Assembly: GCA_964368945.1 (NCBI GenBank) | Contig: CAYJDM010000004.1 | Coordinates: 8,577 to 72,576, forward strand | DNA: 64,000 bases | Direction of reading: 5' to 3' | Origin: an uncultured Candidatus Saccharibacteria bacterium | GTDB lineage: Bacteria > Patescibacteriota > Minisyncoccia > Phycocordibacterales > CAIZLB01 | Part shown: piece after piece, positions 8,801 to 63,536 of the stretch | Numbering within the stretch: position 1 is the stretch's first letter | How the letters are laid out: every line of letters starts with the position of its first letter | Made by a program: the position numbers and the translations under genes | The notes under the pieces: model-generated | The model's database searches: none | What the model was told of the DNA's origin: nothing | What the model saw: only the letters and a program-made list of their open reading frames with translations

Positions 8801-11800
8801 TGTCGTAACCGTATTCGCAGCGTTTATATTGTAGCCAATAAGTCCGCCTGCATAGCTATCTCCACCGGCGCCTGCAGCGCCTCCAATCGTTCCCGCTCCT
8901 CCATTCCCCGTGCTCAAAGACGCATCTGCGCCATTTCCTCCAGTTCCTCCATTTCCTCCATTTCGTGCAAGCGATGTCACTGATCCGGCAGCATAAGAAT
9001 TCAAGATAACTCCAGTCGCTGCATTGATTCCGACAAGTCCTCCTGCATATGAAGCGCCGCCTGCGCCCATTGCACCCACAGTTCCTCCTGCAGCACCAGT
9101 CGTAGCTGTGCCGCTATTGCTTGCGCCTCCTGCGCCTCCGTTTCCTGCCGTGCCAACATTGCCGCTCGTCGAAGTAACGTCTCCTGTAGCATATGAATTG
9201 CTTTCAATAATTCCTCCGCCTGCGAGACCGGCTGATCCGTTTGTTCCGACAAGTCCTCCCGCATACGATGCGCCTCCGGCACCCGAAGCGCCTCCTGCTC
9301 CTCCAACGCCTCCAATCGAATTAGTTCCACCGGCGCCTCCAATTATTCCAGCGCCTCCATTGCCGCTCGCACCTCCCGTCGCGCTAACTGCCCGCGTAGA
9401 ATAATTCGCTGTCACTTGAAAGTTATTGCTCGCAGTCGCATTGATTTGAGCAATCAATCCGCCGGCATACGCAGCGCCTCCGGCTCCAGTTGGGCCAGAT
9501 GCACCAGTTGAACCTCCTGCACCAGTTCCGCCGGCAGCAGATACGCCAGCATTTCCGCCAGTACCAGAAGCTCCTCCGATCGCAGTCACAGTTCCAGTGG
9601 CTGAATAATTATTCAAATAGTGAATGAATCCAGTCGTGACGCTCCCGAGCCCGATCAATCCGCCAGCATCCGCTTCACCGCCAATGCCCGATCCGCCGCC
9701 CGCTCCGCCTGCGCCTCCAATAGTTCCGCCTACGCCGCCATTGCCACCAGTGCTTCCAGAAGCGCCGATTCCACCCTGAGCGATTACAGCTCCTGTTGCA
9801 AATGAATTAATGATTCCGCTTCCCGCTGGGTTAACGGTAATTCTGTGAATACCGATAAGTCCGCCTGCATATGCAGCGCCTCCTGTCGCCGGTGTCAATA
9901 CGGATCCGCCGCCCGCGCCTCCAGCCGCGCCAGTCGCTGAGTCACCTCCTGTGCCGCTCGTACCCTGATTGCCCGCATCTCCTCCAGTCGCGCTTACATC
10001 ACCCGTAGCATTTAGCGTAAGGAAATCAATCGATCCTGATGTGAGGTTGCTCAGTCCAACTAATCCGCCAGCGACCGCTTCACCGCCGATTCCTGCAACG
10101 CCGCCCAAGCCTCCTGTCGCACCAGCATGCGTACCGCTTCCAGTGGAACCATCTCCTCCGGTTCCTCCCTGACCGGCATTTCCTCCATTGCCTGCGACAA
10201 CTTCAACATCGCCCGTAGCATTAGAATTTGATATACGCATCACTTGGGTTGTACCGCTGATTCGTCCGACTAATCCGCCGCCATATGCAGCCGCTCCTGC
10301 TCCTCCATTTCCACCAACTCCAGCAACCGCTGCAGTACCTGACGACTGACTTGCTCCAGATGTTCCTCCCGTTCCTCCCTGTCCGCCATTTCCTCCATTG
10401 CCACTAGTGACAGAAATATTTACTGTTGAATATGAAAATCCTTGAATCGTACCGATTGCCGATAGGAAATCTCCTACAAGCCCGCCAAAGGCACGGATAC
10501 CTCCCGCGCCTCCGGCTCCGCCGACAGAACCGGCTCCGCCATTATTTGCTCCGACTCCCGCGCCTCCGTTTCCGCCATTGCCTCCATTTCCTCCATTTCC
10601 TCCAGCCTGCTCAGTTCCTGAAATAGTCAATGTATCTGAATAAGACGAAGTAATTATTCCTGAGCTAAATCCGATAAGGCCTCCAGCATAAGTTCCGCCC
10701 GCTGCGCCACCAATACCAGCGGTACCCAAACCTCCCGCGCCGCCAACGCCGCCAGCAGCAAGCCCTGAACCGCCATTGCCAGCATTGCCGCCATTGCCAG
10801 GAGTTCCGCCTGTGATTACGATATTGCCTTTTCCTGAAGCGGAGTCGTAACTTGCATACGATGAAATGACATCAGAGATTGCATAGCCGACAAGACCGCC
10901 TGCGTATACGATACCTGATGCACCTCCGGCGCCAGCAACGCTTCCTGCCGCACCCGTATTAGCTCCAGCAGAAATACCCGCTGCGCCATTTGCGCCAGAC
11001 CCCCCCGTCAGGACGAGCGATGTTTTCGAATATGATTCCGCTTCAATAACGCCCGTCGTATATCCAGCCAGCCCGCCGACATATATGGCACCGCCAGCGC
11101 CACCGTTAGATCCGGCGCCTCCGACTCCATATATAGCAGTACCTGTACCAATTCCACCCGTTCCGCCGAGAGCAGATGCGCCTCCATTTCCACCAGTTAC
11201 GGTAACAGTTCCAGTTTGTGCATAGCTCGAGGTGATTGTTCCGAGGATGTTTTGACCGACCAGTCCTCCAGCAAATATAACCGCGCCGGCGCCACCTGCT
11301 CCAGCCGCTCCGCCGGCGCCACCGATATGGTTCGTACCAGCTGATCCGTTTCCACCATTTCCACCCACTCCTCCATTGCCTCCATTACCGCCAAGCGCAG
11401 TAACGCTTGTCGTTGCATACGAATTTGTAATAATTGCCAAAACTGCAGTGACGCCATTTCGTCCGGCCAACCCTCCAACAGACACCGTTCCGCCAACTCC
11501 TCCGTTAGCACCTGCGCCTCCGGCTGCTGCAGTACCGTTTGTAATGCTTCCTGATGCGCCTCCATTTCCGCCGGCGCCTCCATTGCCTGCATTTCCTCCT
11601 ATCGCCGTAACGGTTCCGCCTATATGATATGTATTCAAAATCGCAGCGGTGCTATCGCCAACCAAACCTCCGGTAAAATTAGATCCGCTGCTTGCGCCGA
11701 TGGTCCCTGCAGTTCCCACGGTGCCCGCCACCGAAGAACCTCCAGCGCCTCCTGCTCCTCCTGCGCCTGAATTTCCTCCATTACCAGAAGTTCCCTGCAC

Positions 11801-14800
11801 CGATCCTGTTGTATATGAATTTGAGATTTCTCCTGAAGTCACAAAGCCGATCAATCCTCCAGTATATGATGATCCCCCAATTCCTGCACCTCCGCCCGTT
11901 CCGCCGATTCCACCTACCTGGCCTGCTCCGCCCTGTGCACCAGCTCCGCCATTTCCTGCATTGCCACCATTACCAGCAAGGACTGTGACATTTCCTGATG
12001 CCGATGTTGATGCAATCGCTACAAGCGAGTTCGTAAAACCGATCAGGCCTCCTCCATATGCAAGTCCGCCGGCACCGCCTGTTCCGCCGTTTGCTCCTGC
12101 GCCTCCAACCACTGCGCTTATCGCAGCCGCACCAGCGCCTCCCGCCTGACCATTTCCTCCGTTTCCGCCCGTTACGGTAACATTGCCTGTCGCATAAGAA
12201 TTAACAATATTTTGAGCGGAGTTAGAGTTATACCCTTCGAGCCCACCTCCATACGCAGCCAATCCGGCTGCTCCTCCTGCACCACCAGCGCCGCCGACAC
12301 TTCCTGCTGCGCCATTTACTCCAGCAACTCCTGCGCCTCCATCGCCTCCGTTTCCTGCTGTCACGACAACATTGTTTGTCGAATATACCGTATCAATCAG
12401 TACGGATGCGAGTGAGCTATAACCGATTGCTCCTCCAGCATATACCGGACCAATCACACCGCCGGTTCCTCCAGCTCCTCCAACTCCATTTTTTCCATTG
12501 CCAGAACCCCCCGCTCCACCGGCGCTTCCTGCCCCGCCGGTTCCTCCATTTCCGCCAATAGTAACCGTGATCGTGCCTCCGATCGCGCTAGACTTTTGAA
12601 TATTTCCATTTCCCTGACCGGCAAGTCCGCCAATGTATACGGCACCTCCAGAAGATCCGTTACCGCCCGCTCCGCCAATGCCTCCCGCATGACCTCCGGT
12701 TCCAAGAGATCCGTTTCCGCCAATTCCGCCCGCTCCTCCATTTCCTCCATCTCTTCCAAATGCAGTAAGGCTTCCTGTAACAACCGAATCAACGATGACG
12801 CCAGAGTTATCTCCAGCAAGTCCTCCTATATATGCAGCTCCGCCGATGCCGCCAGCTCCTCCAGTTCCGGCTGTGGCCCCAGCGCCCGCAGCTATATTTC
12901 CTGATGCTCCGGCATTTCCTCCCGTACCTCCCGTTCCGGCGACTCCGCCTGCCGCAGTAATCGATGTAATCGTATATGTCACATCATGAATTACCCCGGC
13001 ATTAAATCCGAGTATTCCACCGCTCGCAGCGAGTCCGCCGTTTCCTCCAGCGCCGCCGATGCCGCCAGCGCCGCCAATTGCGCCCGCAGTGCTTCCTCCA
13101 TTTCCTCCATTGCCTCCGTTTCCACCATTTCCGGCAGTACCGCCAAGAGAAGCTACTGTTCCTGTTGTATTTGGAATTGAAATCGTCGTGCCCAGCACGC
13201 TGTCATTGCCGATCACTCCTCCGGCATACGCTGCTCCACCGTTCAATCCAGCTCCGCCAGCGACTCCTGCAACCCCGACAACGCCAGCTCCGCTCGCTCC
13301 TCCATTTCCTCCATTGCCTCCGTTTCCTCCATTTCCTCCATTTGCAAATACGCTTCCATTTGCATATGAATCAGATGCAACCGCACCATTGTTCAATCCA
13401 ATCAATCCGCCAGAAGCAGCAAGTCCTCCTGAAAGCCCGACGCCGCCAGCTATGCCCGTACCTCCGGTGAATGCGCCAGTGGACGTGCCGCCAGAAGCAC
13501 CCGTGAGTCCATTTGCCCCAGAACCTGCGGTCGAGGTCGCATTACCGCTTGCATGTGATGCGCCTTGAATGCTTCCGTTTGCTGCATTAAAACCAACAAG
13601 CCCGCCTGCATACGCTCCTCCACCGAGGTTTGTCGCCGTAGCTCCAGCAGCGCCGCCCGCGCCTCCTGCAGAGGTGCTGCTTGATCCGCCATTTCCACCC
13701 GCGCCGTTTGAGCTGCCGGCGCCTCCATTTGCAATTACATCTCCTGTAGCATATGAATTATTTATTATGCCGGTATTTGCCCCGACAGCACCGCCCGCAT
13801 AGCTCGGAGCGCCTACGAGACCCGCGCCGCCAGTTCCGCCGGCAGCTCCATAACCGCCAGTACCTCCATTTCCACCCGCGCCCGAAGCACCAGAAGTCGA
13901 GCTCGCAAGTATGAAAGCGTGAGAATTGCTTATCGTACCTGCAGAGTTGAAGCCAATCAATCCGCCGACGTATCCGATTGCGCCGAAGGCCCCAGAACCG
14001 CCAGTTCCGCCAGTCGCACCTAATGCCCCAGTTCCCGCGACTCCTCCTGCGCCGCCAGTCGCTCCGGCGCCGCCAGCACTTCCAACCACAGTCGCTGATC
14101 CTGACTCAATATATGTATTGGCAATAATCGCAGTATTCAAACCCGCAATGCCTCCGGCATATGCAACTGCACCAGCGCCACCTGCACCTCCGGTTGCGCC
14201 AGCAGCGCCAGTGCTCGAAGACCCTCCCGATGCATTGCTTCCGCCAAGACCTGCGGCACCTCCGTTTGCTCCAGCAGAAGCGGTTGCCAAAATAGTTCCG
14301 CTTGCATAAGAATTCTGAATCGTATTCGTATTATTACCTACGATGCCCGCAGCATAGGCGGTGGCACCCGCGCCTCCTGCTCCTCCAGCTCCGCCAATTG
14401 CGCCAGATCCGACAAATGTTCCGGCAGAGGCGCCTCCATTTCCGCCGATCCCTCCAACCTGTGCAGTTCCTGCCGTTGAAGTCACATTTCCAGTCGAATA
14501 TGAAGAAGCTTGAATTACGCCGGCGCTTTGTCCTGCAACTCCTCCAGCTGTTGCCACGGCGCCAGCTCCTCCAGTTCCGGCAATAGCGCCAACGCCTCCG
14601 GCAAAGTTTGTTCCGCCGACTCCGCCATTTCCTCCATTGCCCGCAACTCCTCCATTGCCGGCGTTCACGATAATATTTCCCGTATTATACGTTCCAGAAA
14701 TTACTCCCAAGATAATATTTCCAGCGACCCCTCCTGCGAATGCCGCGCCGCCAGTTCCGCCGGCAGCTCCCGCTCCGCCAGCTCCTCCGGTACCAGCTGA

Positions 14801-17800
14801 GCCCACGCCTCCATTTCCTCCATTGCCTCCGTTTCCTCCGTTTCCTCCTTGAGCCGTGATCGTGCCGGTTGAATATGAATTTGAAATTTCTCCATTATTT
14901 AAAAATCCGACGACTCCGCCAACATAAGCAATACCTCCAGTGAGTCCCACGCTGCCAGCGACGCCTGCAACTCCTGCGGTATTCGTATACCCCGCTCCGC
15001 CATTTGCGCCAGCTCCACCTGCACCCGAAGTTCCTGTTACATCAACTGTCGAATACAGATTAAGAAGCGATGTTCCTGTATTGTATCCAACCGCTCCTCC
15101 GGCATATACGATTCCTCCGACGATTGCAGCACCTGCTGCACCGGCAGTTCCTCCTGTCCAAGCGCCTCCTGCTCCGCCCGCACCCGCAGAGCCTCCAGCT
15201 CCAGCAGTACCGTTTACATCCCCAGTCGTATGATAGCTATCAACGATGGCGAGCGCATTATTTCCTGCGAGTCCTCCTATATATAGTATGCCTGCCGCGC
15301 CTCCTGTTCCACCGGCCAGACCCGCGAGTCCTGTCTGAGCCGCTACGCCAGTTCCGCCCGCGCCTCCTGCTCCAGCAGTGCCGTTTACCGCATTTGTAGA
15401 GTGTGCAAAACGAATCGTTCCCGTATTGTTTCCAACGAGTCCGCCGGCATACGATCCAGAAACTGCCGCAGAGCCTCCTATTCCGGAAGCTCCGCCTGCG
15501 CCCGATGTTCCAGCTGAACCCTTTGCACCTCCCGATCCGCCAGTGCCGCCGACTCCGCCATCGCCGCCGACTGCAGATACGAGTCCGCTTAATGAATTAG
15601 CCGTGATGATCGATCCTAGATTTATTGCGGACAATCCGCCTGCGAACGCAGCACCGCCCGCTCCGCCGGCTCCTGCTGCACCTCCGACTCCGCCAGTTCC
15701 TGTAGTCGTAAGTGATGCGCTGCCTCCCGCGCCTCCAGCTGCTCCATTTTTTCCATCAGAACCAGTAGCAGTGACTGCGCCAGTAGAATAGACGTTTACT
15801 ATCGAACCATTGATGAAGCCAGGCGTATTATTTTGTCCAACCAATCCTCCGGCATATGCAATTGCGCCAGCTCCGCCCGCTCCACCAATCGCAGATACGC
15901 CAGATGCTGCAATCGCTGACGAACCTGCAGCAGAAGCGCCGCCCGCGCCTCCTGCAGAGGCATTGCCAGCAACTCCTCCGATTGCCTGCACATCCCCAGT
16001 CGCATAGCTTCCATTTTCGATAGTGCCTGAATTGTTTCCAACAAGACCACCGACAAATACCGTTCCTGCCGCGCCGCCAGTAGCTCCAGCGCCGCCGAGG
16101 CCGCCGATATTTGCGCCGCCCACGCCAACTCCGGCATTGCCTCCTGTACCTGCAGTTCCAGCATTGCCTCCTGCGCCGCCCCTTCCGGTAACATTTCCCG
16201 TCGCAGCAGAAGACACGATTGTTCCTGCCTGTACCCAGCCAATAAGCCCACCAACATATGCAAGGCTACCTGCACCGGCGACTCCCGCCGCACCTCCTGC
16301 TCCTCCAATGCCGGTACCCACACCTGCTACTGATCCATTGCCTCCATTACCTGCATTTCCGCTTGAGCCACCAGCGCCTCCTGCACCTGTAACAGTTGCA
16401 GAACTTGTAGCTGCAGTGATGCTTCCCTGCTGAGAATATCCGGCAAGCCCTCCAACATATGCAACTCCTCCTGTTGCTGCAGCATTGCTTGCTGCCGCTC
16501 CGCCAGGACCTGCGATGCTCGAACCCGTCGTAATATTTCCTGCATTGCCACCGTTTCCTCCATTTCCGCCGGCGCCTCCCGCACCGTTAATGTTTCCACT
16601 GATACTTACATTCGTAATTGTTCCCGTATTGTATCCAACCACTCCTCCCAAATATAATACGCTTCCCGCCGTACCAGCACCGCCAGCCGTACCGGCTGAA
16701 GGCCCGGGTCCGTTTGTTCCGTTTACGCCATTGCTGCCCGCCGTACCAGCAGTGCTCGTCGCGCTGATTGAAACGCCAGAGAGAGTTACGTTTTTTATAA
16801 GATTAGTAGAATATGCAAAAAGACCTACATAGCTCGAAGTCGTCGTACTTATATATAGGTTGCTGATCGTAAAATTATTTCCATCAAAGATACCAGCGAA
16901 AGGAGTCGAAACGTTTCCGATCGGATCGAATCCTGAGCCAGATGACCAGCCGGTAGTTGTCGCCGCATCAATATCATTGTTGAGCTTGAATGAGCTAGAC
17001 AGGTTCGTCTTCATGCCCTGCAGTCCGTATACATCGAAAACCAAGAAAGGATCCGCGCTATTCCCAATGCCTGTATAACGTCGAAAAGTTCCCGCAGTGA
17101 CGTTGAAGCTTCCGCTTACAGTCAGTATATTCGTTCCGGGATTCGTCGCAGTAAAAGTCGCAGCAGATGTCTGAGTATAATTTCCAGACTGTCCGCCTGA
17201 GTTCGTCACGGTAAGGTTTGCGTTTTGCAAAATCGTGCCAGCATAACCATTGATGGCAAAAGATCCGACCGTTGCAGCAGTATCAATAGTAATGATAGTT
17301 GAGGCCGCACCTGAAGATGCATCGAAAAATACATTCGTCGTGGCATCGGGCAGGTTGCCAGCGCCAGGAGTTCCGTTTGATACCGTTGCCCAGTGGTTTG
17401 CCGCATCAGACCAATTTCCCGTACCTCCTACCCAGTATGCATTCGCTGGCGGATCAGTCACATAGTCGACATCGACATTTCCAATTATCTTCAGGTCAAA
17501 GACATCCGTAGGCGTTGCAAGGCTCGAAAGGTTGATGCGGTACTTTCCATCATGATCAATATAAAAAGTTCCGACAAGCGTACCGTCCTGTGCATAAGCC
17601 TCGATAGTCGCCGGAGCATTGGCATCTGTCGGCCGAGCATAGAGCGTAATGTCATTCGTATTATTGAGGAGCTTCTCAAAGGTCACTCGAATATACTGCC
17701 CGTTGAGCAAGCTCACATAATTCTGATCAAGCGAGCCAACGCCAGGAAAAATATCTTCCAAAGCATTTTTATGCTCATCGAGGCGCAATGCATCTGAGAT

Positions 17801-18775
17801 CAAGATGATTTCAAATGTCTGCGTCGAAAGATGCGGGACTATCCATGCGACATGATCCAAGTAGCCATTTCCGTCTTCATCAGTTGCGACGAACTCCATT
17901 TCTTGGTTCTCATTATTCTGCCATTTGATTTTTATCTTGCCCTCTTCCCCAACTTTGAATATTTCTGGAATCTCTATTTTGACTGGAACATTCGTCATAT
18001 GCTCGATCAAGTCTTGTTCCGGCGTAGATGCGACTACGACGATTTTTCCAGTAGCGCTATTTTCTTCTGTGATAGTCGGCAATGACGATGTCGCTGTTGA
18101 TGTGGCCGTCGATGTCGCAGTGACCTCTGAAATTGATGAGGTCGTAGAGGCTGTAGAAGTCGCGGAAGTTTCTGCTTCGTTAGAAGTCGCGACATCCGAT
18201 GTCGTTGAAGCCGCATCAGTCGAAGGCTCAGTTGCAGAAGATTGAGTCGGAGTTTCAGTTTGATCTTCTATCGGTGTCGAAGTCGAGGTTGATGTAGAAG
18301 TAGAAGTAGAAGTAGAAGTAGATGCAAAGGCGGATTCTGATGTCGATGTTGAGGCCTGCTGCGTATCTGAAGTGGCGGTCCCTTCGGATGTAGTTGGAGC
18401 CGTCGAAGTGTCCTCAACAGAAGCGGCGTCAGGGACCGATTCGGGAACGGATTCAGGATCAGGATCAGAATCAGAAACCGGATCGACGCTTTCAGATGTC
18501 TCATCTGGAGCTGTTACATTTTCCACCGTCGGAGTCGATGGTTCAGAAATATTATTTTCAGATGGCTCTGATACAGTCGGGCTTGATGTTTCTGGAGCAG
18601 CTGCTGGTTCTGATGATGGAGCCGCATCAGGAACCGGTGCAGAAATTTGCGGCGCGCTAACATCTGATGCAGGAGCTGCACTTTCTTCAGCAAATGCTGT
18701 TGAGAAAAAACCGCAAAGCATTATTGCTGCGATTAGTGAGAAAGATATTTTTTTGAGACGAGTACTCAGTTGCAT
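2861..18775 (-). CDS. giant secreted surface protein (5,304 aa) with C-terminal dockerin
   Basis: A single uninterrupted ORF. It has a signal peptide (MQLSTRLKKISFSLIAAIMLCGFFSTAFA), then an acidic S/T/P/E-rich region with an (ST)n tract. About 50 Gly-rich repeats follow (...YAGGLVGxNxGxIxNSYxTGxVxxxGGxGGxGG...), then 13 FN3-like repeats (PDAPTIGTATGGNGQATITFTPPVSNGGSAITYYTVTS...TGLTNGQAYTFTVTATNA.GTS). The C-terminal ~60 aa show the dockerin type-I duplicated Ca-binding motif (GADLNSDGKVNSIDFSIML / VDTNTDKQVNSVDFSILL). Confidence 0.85.
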   Translation of the reverse strand: MQLSTRLKKISFSLIAAIMLCGFFSTAFAEESAAPASDVSAPQISAPVPDAAPSSEPAAAPETSSPTVSEPSENNISEPSTPTVENVTAPDETSESVDPVSDSDPDPESVPESVPDAASVEDTSTAPTTSEGTATSDTQQASTSTSESAFASTSTSTSTSTSTSTSTPIEDQTETPTQSSATEPSTDAASTTSDVATSNEAETSATSTASTTSSISEVTATSTATSTATSSLPTITEENSATGKIVVVASTPEQDLIEHMTNVPVKIEIPEIFKVGEEGKIKIKWQNNENQEMEFVATDEDGNGYLDHVAWIVPHLSTQTFEIILISDALRLDEHKNALEDIFPGVGSLDQNYVSLLNGQYIRVTFEKLLNNTNDITLYARPTDANAPATIEAYAQDGTLVGTFYIDHDGKYRINLSSLATPTDVFDLKIIGNVDVDYVTDPPANAYWVGGTGNWSDAANHWATVSNGTPGAGNLPDATTNVFFDASSGAASTIITIDTAATVGSFAINGYAGTILQNANLTVTNSGGQSGNYTQTSAATFTATNPGTNILTVSGSFNVTAGTFRRYTGIGNSADPFLVFDVYGLQGMKTNLSSSFKLNNDIDAATTTGWSSGSGFDPIGNVSTPFAGIFDGNNFTISNLYISTTTSSYVGLFAYSTNLIKNVTLSGVSISATSTAGTAGSNGVNGTNGPGPSAGTAGGAGTAGSVLYLGGVVGYNTGTITNVSISGNINGAGGAGGNGGNGGNAGNITTGSSIAGPGGAAASNAAATGGVAYVGGLAGYSQQGSITAATSSATVTGAGGAGGSSGNAGNGGNGSVAGVGTGIGGAGGAAGVAGAGSLAYVGGLIGWVQAGTIVSSAATGNVTGRGGAGGNAGTAGTGGNAGVGVGGANIGGLGGAGATGGAAGTVFVGGLVGNNSGTIENGSYATGDVQAIGGVAGNASAGGAGGASAAGSSAIAASGVSAIGGAGGAGAIAYAGGLVGQNNTPGFINGSIVNVYSTGAVTATGSDGKNGAAGGAGGSASLTTTGTGGVGGAAGAGGAGGAAFAGGLSAINLGSIITANSLSGLVSAVGGDGGVGGTGGSGGAKGSAGTSGAGGASGIGGSAAVSGSYAGGLVGNNTGTIRFAHSTNAVNGTAGAGGAGGTGVAAQTGLAGLAGGTGGAAGILYIGGLAGNNALAIVDSYHTTGDVNGTAGAGGSAGAGGAGGAWTGGTAGAAGAAIVGGIVYAGGAVGYNTGTSLLNLYSTVDVTGTSGAGGAGANGGAGYTNTAGVAGVAGSVGLTGGIAYVGGVVGFLNNGEISNSYSTGTITAQGGNGGNGGNGGNGGVGSAGTGGAGGAGAAGGTGGAAFAGGVAGNIILGVISGTYNTGNIIVNAGNGGVAGNGGNGGVGGTNFAGGVGAIAGTGGAGAVATAGGVAGQSAGVIQASSYSTGNVTSTAGTAQVGGIGGNGGASAGTFVGSGAIGGAGGAGGAGATAYAAGIVGNNTNTIQNSYASGTILATASAGANGGAAGLGGSNASGGSSSTGAAGATGGAGGAGAVAYAGGIAGLNTAIIANTYIESGSATVVGSAGGAGATGGAGGVAGTGALGATGGTGGSGAFGAIGYVGGLIGFNSAGTISNSHAFILASSTSGASGAGGNGGTGGYGAAGGTGGAGLVGAPSYAGGAVGANTGIINNSYATGDVIANGGAGSSNGAGGNGGSSSTSAGGAGGAAGATATNLGGGAYAGGLVGFNAANGSIQGASHASGNATSTAGSGANGLTGASGGTSTGAFTGGTGIAGGVGLSGGLAASGGLIGLNNGAVASDSYANGSVFANGGNGGNGGNGGNGGASGAGVVGVAGVAGGAGLNGGAAYAGGVIGNDSVLGTTISIPNTTGTVASLGGTAGNGGNGGNGGNGGSTAGAIGGAGGIGGAGGNGGLAASGGILGFNAGVIHDVTYTITSITAAGGVAGTGGTGGNAGASGNIAAGAGATAGTGGAGGIGGAAYIGGLAGDNSGVIVDSVVTGSLTAFGRDGGNGGAGGIGGNGSLGTGGHAGGIGGAGGNGSSGGAVYIGGLAGQGNGNIQKSSAIGGTITVTIGGNGGTGGAGSAGGAGGSGNGKNGVGGAGGTGGVIGPVYAGGAIGYSSLASVLIDTVYSTNNVVVTAGNGGDGGAGVAGVNGAAGSVGGAGGAGGAAGLAAYGGGLEGYNSNSAQNIVNSYATGNVTVTGGNGGNGQAGGAGAAAISAVVGGAGANGGTGGAGGLAYGGGLIGFTNSLVAIASTSASGNVTVLAGNGGNAGNGGAGAQGGAGQVGGIGGTGGGAGIGGSSYTGGLIGFVTSGEISNSYTTGSVQGTSGNGGNSGAGGAGGAGGSSVAGTVGTAGTIGASSGSNFTGGLVGDSTAAILNTYHIGGTVTAIGGNAGNGGAGGNGGASGSITNGTAAAGGAGANGGVGGTVSVGGLAGRNGVTAVLAIITNSYATTSVTALGGNGGNGGVGGNGGNGSAGTNHIGGAGGAAGAGGAGAVIFAGGLVGQNILGTITSSYAQTGTVTVTGGNGGASALGGTGGIGTGTAIYGVGGAGSNGGAGGAIYVGGLAGYTTGVIEAESYSKTSLVLTGGSGANGAAGISAGANTGAAGSVAGAGGASGIVYAGGLVGYAISDVISSYASYDSASGKGNIVITGGTPGNGGNAGNGGSGLAAGGVGGAGGLGTAGIGGAAGGTYAGGLIGFSSGIITSSYSDTLTISGTEQAGGNGGNGGNGGNGGAGVGANNGGAGSVGGAGGAGGIRAFGGLVGDFLSAIGTIQGFSYSTVNISVTSGNGGNGGQGGTGGTSGASQSSGTAAVAGVGGNGGAGAAAYGGGLVGRISGTTQVMRISNSNATGDVEVVAGNGGNAGQGGTGGDGSTGSGTHAGATGGLGGVAGIGGEAVAGGLVGLSNLTSGSIDFLTLNATGDVSATGGDAGNQGTSGTGGDSATGAAGGAGGGSVLTPATGGAAYAGGLIGIHRITVNPAGSGIINSFATGAVIAQGGIGASGSTGGNGGVGGTIGGAGGAGGGSGIGGEADAGGLIGLGSVTTGFIHYLNNYSATGTVTAIGGASGTGGNAGVSAAGGTGAGGSTGASGPTGAGGAAYAGGLIAQINATASNNFQVTANYSTRAVSATGGASGNGGAGIIGGAGGTNSIGGVGGAGGASGAGGASYAGGLVGTNGSAGLAGGGIIESNSYATGDVTSTSGNVGTAGNGGAGGASNSGTATTGAAGGTVGAMGAGGASYAGGLVGINAATGVILNSYAAGSVTSLARNGGNGGTGGNGADASLSTGNGGAGTIGGAAGAGGDSYAGGLIGYNINAANTVTTSYAIGATVSGTSGNGGQGGTGGNGGTSGIAAAGGAAGAGGAAGSAGTVFVGGLIGRNDGTIQTYSYSTSNVVGVAGNGGQGGTGGNGANGGAGTSGAGGNGGIGGAATAGGVGGFAYGGGLVARNETTRVIKDSYATGNVTLSGGNGGNGGNAGNGGQGGAGASAGTGGAGGNAGASGVGTVGGIKYVGGFLGYNLGTIATVYSVGAVSVTGANGGAAGNGGNAGNGGNGGATGAGGNGGNQGATSDAGNGAALHVGGLIGYNFTAGVVSNSWTAGSVTTTGGNGGTAGVRGLSGNGGNGGTLAGGNGGTSVAGSAGGVGGASIAGGLIGSNLTTGSFNNSYASTTVTMTGGNGATGGIGGNGGNGGVGGSGGSGNGGAGQVGAAGATGGAGGAVTGGGLVGDNTGVITNAYSLGSVTATAGSPALGGKGGNGGNGGAAGGGSVGANGNGANGGVGGAGASALVGGLLGSHATSLVTNTYSSSVPTATKTSGAAGGAAGSKGTGGSGGSDGATGATGSSASLQYAGGIVGNPVSGTWASSYWDTTTSGKTDGAGNATTPTNTAGKTTVQMKQQATFTNWDFSTLPVWKIAETTTYPYFNYQVAPDAPTNVTALAGNGQATITFTAPGNTGGSQILSYMVTSNTGGFSATSGGSPITITGLTNGVTYTFTVTATNAYGTSTSSGTSNAVTPATIPDAPTIGTATGGNGQATITFTPPVSNGGSAITYYTVTSNVGGFIAYGGSSPITVTGLTNGQAYTFTVTATNAYGTSSASATTNSVTPATVPDAPTGISAVDGNGQATITFTPPVSNGGAAISYYTVTSNTGVTATGGSSPITVTGLTNGVTYTFTVTATNSAGTSTISATSNAVTPATVPDAPTIGTATGGNGQATITFTAPVSNGGSAITSYTVTSSGGHTATGGSSPITVTGLTNGIAYTFTVTATNAIGTSSASSATNSVTPATVPDAPTGVTAVRGNGQATITFTAPVSNGGSAITGYTVTSNVGGLTAFGASSPLIVTGLTNGQAYTFTVTATNAVGTSTASVASNSISPATVPDAPTIGTATAGNGEATITFTPGASDGYSSVLYYTVTSNTGGFVVYSGASPVIVTGLTNGTTYNFTVTATNAVGTSSASTATNSVTPITVPGAPTGVTAVRGNGEATVSFTPPVSNGGSAITYYTVTSNVGGFSATGGSSPITITGLANGTTYTFTVTASNAFGTSTPSPTSNSVTPATTPDAPIIGTATLGNGEATITFTPPVNNGGSNILYYTVTSNTGGFSATGGSSPIVITGLTNGQAYTFTVTATNAVGTSTASASSNSVTPTTVPFAPTIGTATAGNGQATITFTPPLNSGGSAITGYIVTSSGGHTATGGSSPITVLGLTNGTTYTFTVAAINAAGTSTASAVSNSVTPATVPGAPTIGTATLGNGQATITFTAPVSNGGSAITSYTVTSSGGHTATGGSSPITVLGLTNGTAYTFTVTATNAAGTSTASAASNSVTPATVPDAPTIGTATSGNGQATITFTPPVSNGGSAITYYTVTSSGGHIASAGSSPITITGLTNGQAYTFTVTATNAAGTSTASIASNSVTPATVPDAPTNVAGTIGDTSVSVTWSAPASNGGSAITGYTVTSGPGGITVNSTTTNAIVTGLTNGVTYTFTVTATNAIGTSVSSGSSAGVTPASVPGAPINLAAVVGDSSIDLSWTAPVSDGGSALTDYVIQYKLTIGGTWTTFADGVSTVPNATVTSLSNDNSYDFRVYAKNIVGTGTSSSVVSATPGAPAQVLIQSFSDLITPTIGTAVRITNEGSVAYEYQYTWCVTDSAVNLCGSGDDVFSSTAAKLIQPGENFDTILNSTVPVAGNYFFHINVQFGSDSSVAHQSFTAVADTPVEPPTGGGGGGGGGGSGGVSIIIPPVVTKPNGACVGADLNSDGKVNSIDFSIMLAFWKTAGPYKNACVDTNTDKQVNSVDFSILLYQWGKNPALFKRQ
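3485..6995 (-). repeat. tandem array of 13 FN3-like coding repeats (~270-nt period) inside the giant gene
   Basis: The near-identical ~90-aa protein repeats are mirrored by the series of similar antisense ORFs in the ORF track (MIAEPPL.TGAVNVIVAWPFP...). Confidence 0.8.
7100..16800 (-). repeat. Gly-rich (GGxGGxGG / GGLVG) coding repeat array inside the giant gene
   Basis: Dozens of ~55-aa repeats with consensus YxGGL(V/I)GxNxGxIxxSYxTGxV followed by poly-GG(A/N/S/T)GG. The antisense strand reads as Pro-rich shadow ORFs. Confidence 0.75.
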
Positions 18776-29802: not shown

Positions 29803-30177
29803 AAGCCACTGTAGCGGTTTTAGCCTATTAATTTAATAATAGACGAAGAATCTTGAGTCGTGAGACAGAAGACTCCTCGCCATTGTGATCCAACCTTTCG
29901 GTCAGACCCATATACCCTTTCGGGTACACGACCGCTACAGTGACTCTGACGAGGAGTCTTCTATACTGTAGCGGTTTTATATTCCGACCATATCCTAAGG
30001 AAACTAAGCGTTTTCTAAGGGGTTAGGTCTTTGTTGTATGTGTACATGATAGCAAAAATCGAGCTATCTATCTAGACTCTAGCTTAGATTCGGAGCCTTG
30101 CGAAGCATCGGTTACCAACAGCTGAATTTGAAGACTATGCGGTATCTAAAAGGGCTCAATTTTAGTAAAATAGAAAT

Positions 30178-59862: not shown

Positions 59863-61242
59863 ATGATCAGATATCTCAAGCCCAAATCAATCGAGCCCGA
59901 CAGGCATAGAAAAGAGCTGATACTGAATACCATACTCGGATTCTGCCTTTTGATGATCTTTCTGTTCCTGATCATGGTTTTGAACAATGATCTCAATGAT
60001 CGCAGCTATATCGGACTGGGATATTTTCTGATTATCATATCCCCTGTCGCCATCGCATATTACCTATCGAGAAAAGGAAGGATCGCCGCTGCGTCATATC
60101 TGACAATCGGATTCTTCTCATTCGGATTGCTGTATACGGCATATAGCTGGGGCGTAATTCTGCCGACGGTATTGCTCGGAATCGCATTCATCAGCACCTG
60201 CACAAGCCTCCTCATCAATAGCCGCGCAGGCTTCGTGTATGCGATCATATCCAGCGCCACGATATTCGCAATACATATAATGCATGCCACCGGAGTCCAT
60301 GCGCCAGATTATTCATGGACGAGCATTGCGCCGGATGCGATGGACATAGCGGAATATTCGATCCTCATCTTATTCATATCCGGAATATCCTGGCTATCGA
60401 ATAAGCAGACGGAAGCTGCGCTGAATCGAGCCAGGTCATCGGAGCATGACCTCAAGATCGAGCGAGATGGGCTGGAATTGAAAGTGATCGAGCGAACCAA
60501 AGCCCTCGAATATGCCCAAATCGAAAAGACCACCGAGATGTATCGATTCGTAGAATTCGGCAAGCTCTCTGCCGGCTTAATCCACGACCTCATGAGTCCC
60601 CTAACGGCTTTATGCATGCAAGCCGATGAGAAGAATTCCGAGACAATGAATTCACTGATCGGTGCCAGCCGCAAGATCCAGGACATCATCCATGCGACGA
60701 GGAATCAGATCAAAGCGGACTACAAAGTCGAAAAGATAATCCTCGCGCAGATTATCGATGAGGCGACCCTGCTTCATCAGAGCAGGATCAAGAAGCTGAA
60801 TATCGATATTCGAAAAAGCATTCCAGCCGGCCTGTATCTGAACGGCAGCCCTTCCCTTTTATCCCATATTCTGACCAATCTGATCAGCAATGCCATAGAT
60901 GCCCTCGATGAGCGAATCAATCATGACAGATCCGCAGGCCAAGATCCCAAGGCAAATCCTCCAACGCTTGAAATCTATGCGATGCGCAATTCGGACCACA
61001 TAAAGATCATCGTTCGCGACAATGGAATCGGGATCCCTGAGAATATCCGCCAGTCCATCTTCGATCCATTCTTTACGACCAAAAAGCATACCGGCTGGGG
61101 CTATGGCCTTTCGGCTTCCAAGCATATAGCCCAGAAGCATTTCGATGGCACTATTTCCATAGAAACCAAGACTTCGCCCAGCGGCCTCAGCAAGACCTCC
61201 TTCAATCTGACGCTTCCTTTGAAAAAAGAAAAAAGCCGCTGA
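59863..61242 (+). CDS. sensor histidine kinase
   Basis: Multiple N-terminal TM helices, HisKA H-box (GLIHDLMSPL) and HATPase_c (N box NAIDAL, DNGIGIP, G boxes). Confidence 0.75.
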   Translation: MIRYLKPKSIEPDRHRKELILNTILGFCLLMIFLFLIMVLNNDLNDRSYIGLGYFLIIISPVAIAYYLSRKGRIAAASYLTIGFFSFGLLYTAYSWGVILPTVLLGIAFISTCTSLLINSRAGFVYAIISSATIFAIHIMHATGVHAPDYSWTSIAPDAMDIAEYSILILFISGISWLSNKQTEAALNRARSSEHDLKIERDGLELKVIERTKALEYAQIEKTTEMYRFVEFGKLSAGLIHDLMSPLTALCMQADEKNSETMNSLIGASRKIQDIIHATRNQIKADYKVEKIILAQIIDEATLLHQSRIKKLNIDIRKSIPAGLYLNGSPSLLSHILTNLISNAIDALDERINHDRSAGQDPKANPPTLEIYAMRNSDHIKIIVRDNGIGIPENIRQSIFDPFFTTKKHTGWGYGLSASKHIAQKHFDGTISIETKTSPSGLSKTSFNLTLPLKKEKSR

Positions 61243-61279
61243 TAGCGACTCTTTTCTACGATTTTGATCTACCTAATTG

Positions 61280-61580
61280 CGCGGCTGATGGGTGCTGACC
61301 CCACGGCCTCTCCCGTGCGTGACTCCTATATTTTCATATAAGTACGGACTATATCTTTACCATATCTGATTACTCAGGGTTAGGTACTCTGGTATCTAGT
61401 CTCTACGGCGCTCTCCCTAAATCAAGATTGATAAAAGGAGTTCCCTCGGTATTCGCATATTACGAGTCATTTGCATGATTCGAACTTAGCCTTCACCGAT
61501 ATCCCAAAGAGTTTCAATCTGCCTTTAAGCAGAAAGCTGCCAATTTACAGGGGAGTGCTCTACCGTTGAGCTACAGCCGC
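61280..61580 (-). tRNA. tRNA-Asp (GUC) interrupted by a group I intron. Exons are 61547-61580 and 61280-61317.
   Basis: 5' exon: GCGGCUG-UA-GCUC-AACGGUA-GAGC-A-CUCCC-CUGU. 3' exon: CAC-GGGAG-AGGCC-GUGGG-GUCAGCA-CCCAU-CAGCCGC-G. The acceptor, anticodon and T stems all pair. The spliced anticodon loop CUGUCAC equals the universal tRNA-Asp loop, and the discriminator is G. The T-loop GUCAGCA is non-canonical. Confidence 0.6.
61318..61546 (-). mobile_element. group I intron (229 nt) inserted between anticodon positions 35 and 36
   Basis: 5' exon ends in U, with GCAG available as the internal guide sequence. Conserved R-like (GUAGAGACUAGAU) and S-like (AAGAUAUAGUCCGUAC) elements are able to form P7. 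The intron ends in omega-G (..GUCACG). Confidence 0.6.
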
Positions 61581-62240
61581 AATTGTGATGAATTTCTCAA
61601 ATATCGCCCTCTTCCGCCCTAGGAAGAGCGGCGAGGTGAGACCATTATACATAAAACTATAGATTTTCAAAGAGTCTACCCTAGAGAATTGAAGCCTATG
61701 GCAGCCAGTTTTGACCGAAAATAAAGACCCTCTGACCCCAAGGATATCCGCCAGACTGGCCTGAATTTGTTCCAAGAAACGTCTTGAACAGGAGGTGAAC
61801 GCCATAAGCATCGCCACAGATGCATGGGAGGTTTTCCTATTATTCATACCTGTCCAGATATTCCCATCCCCATCGAAAAAACCTCGTATAAAATCCCTTA
61901 TAAATCCTGACGGGACAAAAGGCACGGCAATGCTATTGGTTTTATTTAACCAAAACCCCAATCTGTGCAGATCGTCACACATTTCCTTGCTTCCAATTTG
62001 AAGGCGGTATGTTACTCCACCAAAGCCCTTCTTCTCACGAGCCGAGATACGATGATCCGACCCTATACATGAGCGGATTGATTCAAGTAGATCCTTATCT
62101 GCAATTTGGATTGACCAATACTGACTCCCCCGCTTATTCATTGTAATGTATCCATCTGCAGCAAAAAAACCAAGCACATACGCCATATCGGGCGTCCAAG
62201 TCTTGAAAAAATCCTTATTAACTTTTCGCATCATCGGCAT
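61560..62240 (-). CDS. LAGLIDADG homing endonuclease (double-motif)
   Basis: Two LAGLIDADG motifs (LGFFAADGYI and IRGFFDGDGNI) about 100 aa apart. ATG at 62240 with a TATAAT just upstream. The last 7 codons overlap the tRNA-Asp 5' exon. Confidence 0.7.
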   Translation of the reverse strand: MPMMRKVNKDFFKTWTPDMAYVLGFFAADGYITMNKRGSQYWSIQIADKDLLESIRSCIGSDHRISAREKKGFGGVTYRLQIGSKEMCDDLHRLGFWLNKTNSIAVPFVPSGFIRDFIRGFFDGDGNIWTGMNNRKTSHASVAMLMAFTSCSRRFLEQIQASLADILGVRGSLFSVKTGCHRLQFSRVDSLKIYSFMYNGLTSPLFLGRKRAIFEKFITIAAVAQR

Positions 62241-62354
62241 AAGCAGATTATATGCTCGAATGTGTTTTTGAAAATATTGACAAAAGAAAAGCCGCCGGTA
62301 ATTGCCTACCGGCGGCCGCAATCTACGTACTACAGATTCATTCTGAGCCACACA

Positions 62355-63056
62355 TTAATCGTATCGCAATTTTTTCACATCAAGCCCAAATTCCAAATGG
62401 AATATCCCCTCGACCAATTGGCCGGCAGCCCCCTTCTCCTTGACCCAGGCCGAATGACCTGAAAGAAAAGCCTGTACGGTGGCAGCCTGATCTTTTTCCT
62501 GCGTATCGATCACGAGATCGAAACCGACACAATCTTCCCAGAGGCACTTATCGCCATACAGTCGCTTGTAGCGAGGGCTATCATCCTTGAGATCGCGCTT
62601 AGTGACGCGCCTCATAGATTCCTCCTCCGAAATGCCATCCCTTATCGCTATGCGCCGGGCGCATTCTTCGCGAGGGCAAACCAGCAGGACCTTGAAAGCT
62701 CCGGGCATGAGGATATGCGGAAGACGCCCTTCGCATATCACAAAATCCTGGGTGGCGAAGATATTGAGCATCTGATCCATCTCATTATCGATCCCCCATT
62801 CCGGATGCTCGCGATTCTGCTCCGCAAGAATCTCAATCGGAACGCCGCGCTTGGCGGCAACGGCGCGCATGATATCGCCCCCCGAAGGAAACCTGTATGG
62901 AGCCTTCTCAAATTCCCTTTTCAGGGCAGTGAGAAGAGCGCTGCTACCACAGCCAGAGAGCGAAGTGATAGATGCCTGATGTCTGAAAAACTTGCTATTC
63001 ATGTGTTTTTTGATTTGGTGGATTGAGGATATGCGGATTGAACTGAATTTAGACAA
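62355..63056 (-). CDS. cytidylate kinase-like family P-loop protein
   Basis: ITSLSGCGSSALLTALKREF resembles the Cytidylate_kin2 N-terminus. Followed by a strong hairpin plus T-run at ~62285-62320. Confidence 0.4.
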   Translation of the reverse strand: MSKFSSIRISSIHQIKKHMNSKFFRHQASITSLSGCGSSALLTALKREFEKAPYRFPSGGDIMRAVAAKRGVPIEILAEQNREHPEWGIDNEMDQMLNIFATQDFVICEGRLPHILMPGAFKVLLVCPREECARRIAIRDGISEEESMRRVTKRDLKDDSPRYKRLYGDKCLWEDCVGFDLVIDTQEKDQAATVQAFLSGHSAWVKEKGAAGQLVEGIFHLEFGLDVKKLRYD

Positions 63057-63164
63057 AAAACACTGAGCCTGAAAGGATCAATGTCTGCCGCAAGAATACA
63101 TACCGAAAGCGATATTGGCAAGAAACCCCGCAGGCAAACCTACGGGAAACAGCTCAAAAAAATG

Positions 63165-63238
63165 TGTCGACGGGTGGGATCGAACCACCGACCTGAGGCT
63201 TATGAGTCCTCCGCTCTAACCATCTGAGCTACGTCGAC
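63165..63238 (-). tRNA. tRNA-Met (anticodon CAU; Ile-lysidine not excluded)
   Basis: GUCGACG-UA-GCUC-AGAUGGUUA-GAGC-G-GAGGA-CUCAUAA-GCCUC-AGGUC-GGUGG-UUCGAUC-CCACC-CGUCGAC-A. Canonical arms apart from an A31-G39 mismatch. Confidence 0.75.
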
Positions 63239-63536
63239 GTCCATGTTTTATAACATATCCTGGGCCTAAAATAAAGGCCGCCCAGGCCAGACCCCCGATC
63301 CCCCTTCATTTACTGGCGCAAGACAAAAGCGCGCCTTTCCGGCACGCCTTTGTCTTTGGTCTCTGGCTACTTTGTTGCGGGGCCAAGAATTGCACTTGGT
63401 CATCAAGGTTATGAGCCTTGCATGCAACTGTTACACCTCCCCGCAATTGCATTATCTTTGCTGAATATTACTACGATCGGCCCCAGGACTTGCGCCACTG
63501 AGACCGAAAGCGTTTTACTATATTGACCGAATTCGC

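Follow-up and report, generated by a model that had tools for sequence, protein, structure and literature searches.

A free-standing LAGLIDADG endonuclease gene that runs into tRNA-Asp, a possible homing cassette of Candidate Phyla Radiation bacteria

We describe a gene for a free-standing LAGLIDADG endonuclease that ends within an intron-containing tRNA-Asp gene of an uncultured Candidatus Saccharibacteria bacterium (GenBank assembly GCA_964368945.1, contig CAYJDM010000004.1, positions 8,577 to 72,576 of the forward strand; this whole stretch of 64,000 nucleotides is the window referred to below), and report that the same cassette, in the order tRNA-Met, promoter, LAGLIDADG gene and overlapping tRNA-Asp, occupies the same slot in at least 80 Paceibacteria-type species of Candidate Phyla Radiation (CPR) bacteria. 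The gene is intact and strongly selected, and its two-domain LAGLIDADG protein is apparently functional. Our preferred interpretation, for which belief and doubt are about equally balanced, is that this is a homing endonuclease cassette sitting on the 5' end of tRNA-Asp and recognising the tRNA-Asp gene itself, with the intron, or changes in the D-arm of the tRNA, providing immunity. The parts of the window locus on which the argument turns are the following.

61560..62351, minus strand: maximal open reading frame (ORF) with a double LAGLIDADG motif, taken mechanically from the upstream GTG at 62351
62240..61560, minus strand: likely coding sequence of the free-standing double-motif LAGLIDADG endonuclease (protein P0001), from the ATG at 62240
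62151..62177, minus strand: LAGLIDADG motif 1, VLGFFAADG, residues 22-30, with catalytic Asp29; G24, F25, F26, A27, A28, D29 and G30 are invariant in the alignment
61863..61889, minus strand: LAGLIDADG motif 2, IRGFFDGDG, residues 118-126, with catalytic Asp125; R119, G120, F122, D123, G124, D125 and G126 are invariant in the alignment
62247..62274, minus strand: promoter-like site of the endonuclease gene, TTTTCA-16-TATAAT, with TATAAT at 62252..62247
62290..62317, minus strand: intrinsic terminator of the upstream cytidylate-kinase-like gene, inside the coordinates of the maximal ORF
61644..61670, minus strand: promoter-like element within the ORF, TTGAAA (61670..61665), 15 nt, TATAAT (61649..61644), 63 nt before position +1 of tRNA-Asp; its codons in the window read L-K-I-Y-S-F-M-Y-N
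61547..61580, minus strand: 5' exon of tRNA-Asp(GUC), positions 1-35, ending ...CCUGU and holding the last 6 codons of the ORF and its TAG
61318..61546, minus strand: group I intron (Rfam RF00028) without an ORF, 229 nt, between U35 and C36 of the anticodon
61280..61317, minus strand: 3' exon of tRNA-Asp, from C36 to the discriminator G73, with an unusual T-loop (GGGGTCAGCACCC) and the CCA not encoded

The initial annotation of this locus had claimed a LAGLIDADG gene that is free-standing, lies outside the intron, has its own -10 box and runs 21 nt into the tRNA, and each of these points was confirmed. A Pfam search, proposed with that annotation, matched both LAGLIDADG_3 (1.9e-14) and LAGLIDADG_1 (5e-7), and the terminal Asp of both motifs is present in the window protein and unchanged in all 16 aligned homologues, among which 55 residues are invariant, including those of the two active-site motifs. 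The AlphaFold model (predicted local distance difference test, pLDDT, 89; predicted template modelling score, pTM, 0.86) and its comparison with Foldseek gave the two-domain, pseudo-symmetric alpha-beta-beta-alpha-beta-beta-alpha fold, the top PDB matches being monomeric LAGLIDADG enzymes, I-Tsp061I (6e-11) and then I-AniI, I-OnuI, I-SceI and I-DmoI; WhiA, a LAGLIDADG-derived regulator, and the bI3 maturase were also among the structural matches. At the level of sequence, a PDB search with the endonuclease returned a marginal match alone, I-HjeMI (E = 0.004), and an NCBIfam scan returned nothing but intein-host models, far under their cut-offs. The ORF at 61560-62351 exists as first described, whereas its start must be moved: the homologues all begin at the equivalent of ATG 62240 (MP...) and the 37 extra codons of the GTG-start ORF cross the terminator hairpin of the upstream cytidylate-kinase-like gene, so the protein almost certainly begins at ATG 62240 and has 226 amino acids. 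The -10 box ends 6 nt before this ATG, which implies a leaderless or near-leaderless messenger RNA (mRNA), probably the former.

The overlap with tRNA-Asp is exactly 21 nt because the stop codon of the ORF, TAG (61562..61560), is the UAG of the tRNA D-loop. ARAGORN missed the split gene and called the joined exons tRNA-Asp(GTC). The covariance match of the intron to RF00028 scored 53.8 bits (cut-off 50); its 5' part strays into the ORF, and the intron boundaries were set by the spliced-exon tRNA call together with an alignment of 25 intron-containing genes. In this alignment 36 of the 78 predicted pairs show compensatory changes. The P1 helix, CUGU/GCAG, is invariant and sets a U.G pair at the 5' splice site; the last intron base is a G, followed by CACG of the second exon. 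The alignment supports a working ribozyme, predicted to be self-splicing. A short D-loop, AACGGTAGAGC, and the T-loop GGGGTCAGCACCC, which lacks the usual TTCGA, co-occur across loci (the window, L093, L146, L159 and L138), and tRNA-Asp genes of this type occur in loci that have the intron and endonuclease gene as well as in loci that lack them.

Database searches returned more than 1,368 homologues of about 225 amino acids at about 50-65% identity, the named ones coming from Paceibacteria/Parcubacteria-type CPR bacteria. Our scan took one genome per species and found a relative in 199 species, from which 80 loci were kept; the kept scan loci with three context look-ups and the window make up the set of 83 loci. 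Of the 80 loci in which a position could be assigned to the tRNA, 75 have an ORF that stops within tRNA-Asp, a recurrence far beyond what chance would give. Most often (54/80) the overlap is 10 nt and the stop codon is formed by U8-A9-G10 of the tRNA, and overlaps of 15, 21 or 23 nt occur in six loci each; counts of in-frame stops in the ORF tail are circular, as the loci were chosen for the overlap, and are used here qualitatively only. In the five exceptions the first 12-20 nt of the tRNA (GCGGNNGTAGCT...) are duplicated and the ORF ends in this extra copy, the complete tRNA lying 60-300 nt beyond. Tandem or single pseudo-5' ends of tRNA-Asp (GCGGNNGTAGCTGTTTTGGCTAG...) stand between the ORF and the real tRNA in L031 (1083..1381), L066 (3166..3247), L027 (3166..3236) and L078 (1466..1557), the duplicated stretch of L031 including an assembly gap of Ns.

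On the upstream side, tRNA-Met(CAU) lies about 55-90 nt from the ORF in most loci, and 57 of 70 related loci share the TATAAT-N6-start spacing. Nearly all loci have a full-length ORF, with a premature stop in L060, and the ratio of nonsynonymous to synonymous substitution rates (dN/dS) is 0.08-0.13 over seven close pairs, which argues that the endonuclease protein is functional; pairs from intron-less loci (L079/L084, L006/L009 and L005/L006) fall at 0.08-0.10. Neither of the two doubts that accompanied the initial annotation, mutated catalytic residues and a poorly conserved ORF, was borne out, the pair of catalytic Asp residues being intact and the ORF highly conserved. That annotation had also offered a recent insertion as an alternative, which is not supported: the cassette is old and widespread, occurring in 83 loci. 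The closest relative of the window, L001 (65% protein identity), is syntenic and has the endonuclease gene without the intron.

The intron is in fact optional. Among 81 classifiable loci (two further loci are truncated) it is present in 46 (about 57%) and absent from 35, and the combination of a free-standing endonuclease gene with an ORF-less intron seen in the window is shared by 46 loci overall. One intron type, always at the same place after U35, accounts for 45 of these; L069 (1009..1323) has a clearly different, better-scoring group I intron (RF00028, 82 bits), also after U35 and beside the same endonuclease family. Gene and intron are not inherited jointly, 35 of the 81 loci keeping the gene alone, and intron status switches many times across the protein tree. 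The endonuclease gene is linked to tRNA-Asp and not to the intron, on which it does not depend. In L028 a second group I intron (50.7 bits) was seen elsewhere in the locus, as was a match resembling the adenosylcobalamin (AdoCbl) riboswitch at 45 bits, below the cut-off of 50 (996..1200, minus strand, and 1349..1463, plus strand).

What the enzyme might recognise is suggested by its promoter. In most loci a motif stands at a fixed -38 from the start codon, in the arrangement GGTTAG-N8-CCTGTCACG-tGA-TATAAT-N6-(A/G)TG, and the promoter motif of these operator-bearing relatives reads GGTTAGTATAATCTCCTGTCACGTGATATAAT. GGTTAG corresponds to the D-loop and CCTGTCACG to the anticodon-loop letters of an intron-less tRNA-Asp gene, at an identical spacing of 8 nt, while the centre differs (TATAATnT in the promoter, AGCGCTCG in the tRNA). 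The motif spans about 22-23 bp, a size that fits a LAGLIDADG target, contains the uninterrupted intron insertion site CCTGT|CACG, and overlaps the endonuclease's own TGnTATAAT-N6-start promoter. When GGTTAG-N8-CCTGTCAC was sought with at most one mismatch in 968 kb, 64 copies were found: 51 at the -38 position, a further 3 upstream of the endonuclease gene but shifted from that position, 10 within intron-less tRNA-Asp genes and 0 elsewhere. We infer that the motif is an autorepression operator whose letters reveal the homing site, a prediction from motif analysis. Mimicry at the level of RNA, in the form of an anticodon-arm-like hairpin, was rejected: the flanks of CTGTCAC pair at 2.83 of 5 positions against 2.81 in controls and 5/5 in real tRNAs, and the lack of an RNA stem around the motif points to a resemblance, and to recognition, at the DNA level. 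Nor was the motif supported as a leftover 5' half of tRNA-Asp, as the sequence upstream of GGTTAG is unlike tRNA positions 1-17 and weakly alike in L002. A recurrent TGTG(T/C)ATAA was noted 2-5 nt before the operator-like GGTTAG in L012, L013, L035, L036, L045, L051, L063, L079 and L084.

The tRNA-Asp alleles that accompany the cassette show a pattern resembling immunity. A canonical D-arm and anticodon segment was retained in 42 of 45 intron-bearing loci compared with 6 of 35 intron-less loci (Fisher 1e-12, with no phylogenetic correction), and identity of the 5' exon is 86% among intron-bearing and 72% among intron-less loci, where protein identity is similar (59% vs 56%). Under identical search constraints, D-arm variants were found in 8 of 14 cassette-bearing intron-less loci and in 1 of 28 empty sites (p = 2e-4). 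The main variant, seen for instance in L005, is an insertion of one nucleotide, GGTTAG-T-AGC, which alters the spacing of the half-sites.

A second promoter-like element lies within the ORF itself. Its consensus, TTGAAAtTATAyGATTTtATGTATAAT, codes for L-K-L-Y-D-F-M-Y-N and stands about 60-80 nt before tRNA +1 in nearly all loci (about 72). Codon choice at the element is strongly skewed, with TAT for Tyr in 76 of 77 cases (77% elsewhere in these ORFs), AAT for Asn in 76 of 76 (80% elsewhere) and TTG for Leu in 72 of 77 (21% elsewhere), whereas a Tyr four codons upstream varies freely (37 TAT, 23 TAC); TTGAAA-N15-TATAAT is thus constrained at the nucleotide level, and the embedded element is a putative tRNA-Asp promoter. 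In empty sites tRNA-Asp directly follows tRNA-Met, and the cassette parts the two by about 700 nt. A promoter within the last 90 nt of the ORF is probably also how tRNA processing and endonuclease translation coexist. A canonical extended -10 was rejected for this element, as TG directly abuts TATAAT, and a T-arm relic in the V-F-E codons (GTNTTCGAG) was dropped, codon usage there varying freely.

Signs of mobility were sought in sites lacking the gene. A pattern scan of metagenomes yielded 80 empty loci in which tRNA-Met, a spacer of 1-28 nt and an intron-less tRNA-Asp follow one another with no endonuclease ORF between them, so that 83 occupied loci stand against 80 empty tRNA-Met/tRNA-Asp sites at a conserved position. 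The empty-site spacers are short and unconserved. In L093, L146 and L159, all empty, tRNA-Asp equals the spliced exons of the window base for base, odd T-loop included; comparison of the flanks of these three loci with the window found no synteny. The empty sites show presence and absence at the level of lineages and not of strains. No two close relatives were found that differ solely by the cassette, and a search via the cytidylate-kinase-like gene for cassette-less close relatives of the window gave none among three informative relatives, of which L001 and L088 both have the endonuclease gene; more distant relatives found in this way have no tRNA nearby. Among viral contigs we found only distant LAGLIDADG relatives (24-38% identity), no copy of the window intron and no phage vector. 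These proteins, 24-38% identical to the family, are encoded on large IMG/VR viral contigs (L182..L213).

Taken together, these observations could be accounted for as follows. The enzyme would recognise the double-stranded DNA of the tRNA-Asp gene from the D-loop (GGTTAG) to the anticodon loop (CCTGTCACG), and a near-copy of this homing site over its own promoter would serve as an operator for autorepression, as in I-TevI. A cut in a cassette-less canonical allele would be repaired from a cassette-bearing copy, and in this way the endonuclease gene would be introduced along with the neighbouring 5' part of the tRNA, plus the intron where there is one. Interruption of CCTGT|CACG by the intron, or else D-arm changes, would shield the resident tRNA gene, and the embedded promoter would keep tRNA-Asp expressed once the cassette has separated it from the promoter of tRNA-Met. 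Cleavage by RNase P at tRNA +1 would remove the stop codon of the endonuclease mRNA and could limit enzyme output. In the lineage of the window, L001 and L088 the operator would have been lost, leaving the cassette core alone, and another gene lies upstream. Collaborative or trans homing with the intron, as suggested in the initial annotation, is plausible in so far as the operator-like motif of the relatives copies the anticodon-loop DNA that the intron interrupts, but the gene is tied to tRNA-Asp, with 35 of 81 loci intron-less, and the window lacks the motif. More tentatively, and with rather more doubt than belief, one may see here a class-wide, self-regulated, gene-drive-like cassette of CPR bacteria targeting an essential tRNA-Asp, in which the operator shows the target, the cassette supplies the tRNA promoter, the stop codon comes from U8-A9-G10, and escape is by introns (at least two unrelated ones) or by reshaping of the D-arm.

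Several points weigh against a homing cassette directed at tRNA-Asp. The target site is read from the motif alone, and the window, L001 and L088 have no operator motif, keeping TATAAT-N6-ATG with another gene upstream, so that for the window the target is borrowed from its relatives. Within a site of 22 bp as proposed, the intron insertion point would be displaced from the centre by 8 bp, unlike classical LAGLIDADG systems; the true site may be centred on CCTGT|CACG instead, with GGTTAG in another role. Six intron-less loci with an intact endonuclease gene (L022, L033, L039, L049, L058 and L074) keep the canonical site, and an active enzyme of that specificity should cut its own genome there. 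The association tests ignore phylogeny, and a canonical tRNA co-transferred with the intron would give the same pattern, although the immunity and co-transfer readings both imply an enzyme that acts on tRNA-Asp DNA. With 15 nt between its two boxes, the embedded promoter has a short spacer by sigma-70 standards. As the patterns of the genome scan were the catalytic motifs, decayed copies of the gene fall outside the sample, and the protein tree, being star-like, does not distinguish horizontal spread from an ancient origin followed by vertical inheritance and loss.

Among other explanations, the LAGLIDADG protein might have been domesticated as an old, vertically inherited, WhiA-like regulator of the tRNA-Met/tRNA-Asp cluster that would act by binding to the tRNA-like operator and possibly also to the tRNA-Asp gene itself, homing having been lost. 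Long-term purifying selection that includes intron-less lineages, a fixed genomic slot in at least 80 species, an operator-like motif overlapping the promoter, the presence of WhiA among the structural matches and the tolerance of an intact canonical site beside an intact gene in six loci would all suit such a role. We nonetheless consider it unlikely: WhiA-type regulators have lost the LAGLIDADG catalytic Asp residues, which are invariant here in both motifs; empty sites with an identical tRNA-Asp exist; tRNA 5' ends are duplicated at the cassette border in some loci; D-arm divergence is specific to intron-less cassette-bearing loci; and the window lineage keeps the protein though its operator is lost. 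It seems distinctly improbable that the target is the insertion point of the cassette, that is the tRNA-Met/tRNA-Asp spacer and the first bases of tRNA-Asp, in a SegB-like intron-less homing where the intron is an unrelated passenger and the upstream motif a promoter or operator for another factor. Such a target would leave unexplained why the promoter motif otherwise occurs only in tRNA-Asp genes and why intron loss is linked with D-arm divergence, and the short, unconserved spacers of the empty sites would make a poor 22-bp target, even though the right border of the cassette is always at tRNA +1 to +10, duplicated GCGGNNGTAGCT copies mark that border in five loci, the gene persists without the intron, and free-standing endonucleases within tRNA clusters have a precedent in SegB (PMC2330249).

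That the gene adjoins an ORF-less intron, and that I-AniI and the bI3 maturase rank with the nearest structures, would fit a protein that helps in trans to splice the group I intron of tRNA-Asp, similar to those two proteins. A pure maturase role is unlikely because intron-less pairs are equally strongly selected: the 35 intron-less loci keep the gene, and the pairs from such loci give a dN/dS of 0.08-0.10, so its function is not tied to a cognate intron. In addition, a different intron occupies the site in L069 beside the same protein family, and small tRNA introns of this type generally self-splice (PMC3984707), all of which makes the maturase explanation very improbable. We find it hardly credible that an old insertion has left the gene behind as a relic, silent or in decay, whose conserved nucleotides reflect the embedded tRNA promoter only. 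That promoter would give a reason for retaining the 3' end, and L060 does have its premature stop, but a dN/dS of about 0.1 across the whole protein already contradicts a relic, as do the 55 invariant residues with both active-site motifs and the full-length ORF in nearly every locus.

The proposed tRNA-Asp cassette resembles several known systems in part. I-Ssp6803I, whose target is the tRNA-fMet anticodon region, shares with it the anticodon-loop DNA of an intron-hosting tRNA gene as the (here presumed) target; I-Ssp6803I is not a LAGLIDADG enzyme and is encoded inside its intron, whereas in our case the enzyme gene lies outside an intron that has no ORF. Collaborative or trans homing is known from phages, in F-CphI with the psbA intron of cyanophage S-PM2 and in MobE, a member of the HNH family (PMC2790892), with the T4 nrdB intron/I-TevIII (PMC3984707, PMC2988022, PMC2790892). 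As in those systems, a free-standing endonuclease gene adjoins a gene with an ORF-less (or defunct-ORF) group I intron, and the proposed target overlaps the intron insertion site, so that the intron would confer immunity and be carried along in repair. The present, predicted system differs in belonging to a cellular CPR genome instead of a phage, in having a tRNA as host gene and a LAGLIDADG enzyme where MobE is HNH, in an ORF that overlaps the target gene and carries that gene's putative promoter, and in that 35 of 81 loci retain the endonuclease gene though they have no intron. T4 SegB, a GIY-YIG endonuclease, has its own free-standing gene within the tRNA gene cluster of that phage (PMC2330249) and is alike in being a free-standing homing endonuclease gene among tRNA genes with tRNA-gene DNA as its target region; it is a phage gene of another enzyme family, without an ORF-tRNA overlap, intron partner, embedded promoter or operator mimic.

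The closest parallel to the proposed operator is the autorepression of I-TevI: 15 of 20 letters of its operator agree with the homing site, and the operator, which overlaps the promoter, is cut poorly although the enzyme binds it (PMC2988022, describing Edgell et al. 2004). Here too the gene's own promoter is overlapped by a sequence close to the presumed homing site (15/23 letters, as against 15/20) and the central bases differ from those of the target; the enzyme family is another one, the motif is absent from the window lineage, and the operator is a prediction. In CPR bacteria, group I introns of 16S and 23S ribosomal RNA (rRNA) genes encode LAGLIDADG endonucleases (Tsurumaki et al. 2024, PMC11270868; PMC11809585), that is, proteins of the same superfamily in the same phylum, also linked to group I introns in structural-RNA genes. 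Those are encoded inside the rRNA insertions, whereas the tRNA-Asp family is free-standing, and PMC11270868 mentions neither tRNA nor free-standing LAGLIDADG genes. The intron itself is similar to other bacterial tRNA introns in being small and ORF-less, in its place in the anticodon loop and in the U at its 5' splice site. Bacterial group I introns in tRNA anticodon loops are described for tRNA-Leu UAA, tRNA-fMet, tRNA-Ile and tRNA-Arg (PMC3984707), and tRNA-Asp is not named as a host in that 2014 review; a report of Patescibacteria tRNA genes with group I introns (Nakagawa et al., bioRxiv 2025.07.03.662931) is cited in PMC12641178. Our literature search found no description of the endonuclease/tRNA-Asp arrangement, the content of the Nakagawa et al. 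preprint on tRNA-Asp lying outside this comparison, and in no compared system does a LAGLIDADG gene of a cellular genome overlap a tRNA and also have a putative tRNA promoter embedded in it and a tRNA-like motif as its proposed operator.

Cooperation of a free-standing endonuclease with an ORF-less intron has been proposed as a step in the origin of mobile introns, for which the cases given in two reviews come from phages (PMC3984707, PMC2988022). If the tRNA-Asp gene is indeed the target, collaborative homing would be widespread in cells and not confined to phages, with hundreds of natural variants to compare, and an arms race would be visible in a tRNA. This would give a testable reason for the occurrence of group I introns in tRNA anticodon loops, namely protection from an endonuclease, and would also account for the odd D-arms of some CPR tRNA-Asp genes that defeat tRNA finders. 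Should the operator logic hold, the promoter motif would predict the target site for a LAGLIDADG specificity that is new; as most bacterial tRNA-Asp genes contain this site, it may be of use in enzyme engineering. For annotation, it is worth bearing in mind that ARAGORN misses the intron-containing tRNA-Asp, and that the overlap of ORF and tRNA is real and not an error.

The cassette of the window is flanked by the following features.

61227..61257, minus strand: terminator-like hairpin past tRNA-Asp, common to a convergent histidine-kinase gene
62355..63002, minus strand: cytidylate-kinase-like gene (Pfam) with its own terminator; counterparts in L001 (3237..3887) and L088 (350..1198)
63164..63238, minus strand: tRNA-Met(CAU), separated from the endonuclease gene in the window by the cytidylate-kinase-like gene
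63375..63445, minus strand: third tRNA-like gene, with anticodon CAU and an odd D-arm and T-loop (..CCAAGTGCAATTCTTGG..), at 49 bits in Rfam and missed by ARAGORN

A cytidylate-kinase-like gene between tRNA-Met and the endonuclease gene was seen only in the window lineage (the window, L001 and L088), where it stands at the place that carries the tRNA-like operator motif in other loci, the motif being missing from these three. Two CAU tRNAs upstream of the cassette are found in many related loci too. In L004 (3538..3795) a small ORF with a GIY-YIG domain, flanked by the two CAU tRNA genes, immediately precedes the LAGLIDADG cassette on its upstream side and may be a second endonuclease-type gene of that tRNA cluster. 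Elsewhere in the window we noted a match to the LOOT RNA family (RF03000) at 29887..30029 on the minus strand (50.9 bits, cut-off 46.4) and a giant ORF of 5,304 amino acids at 2861..18775, also on the minus strand.

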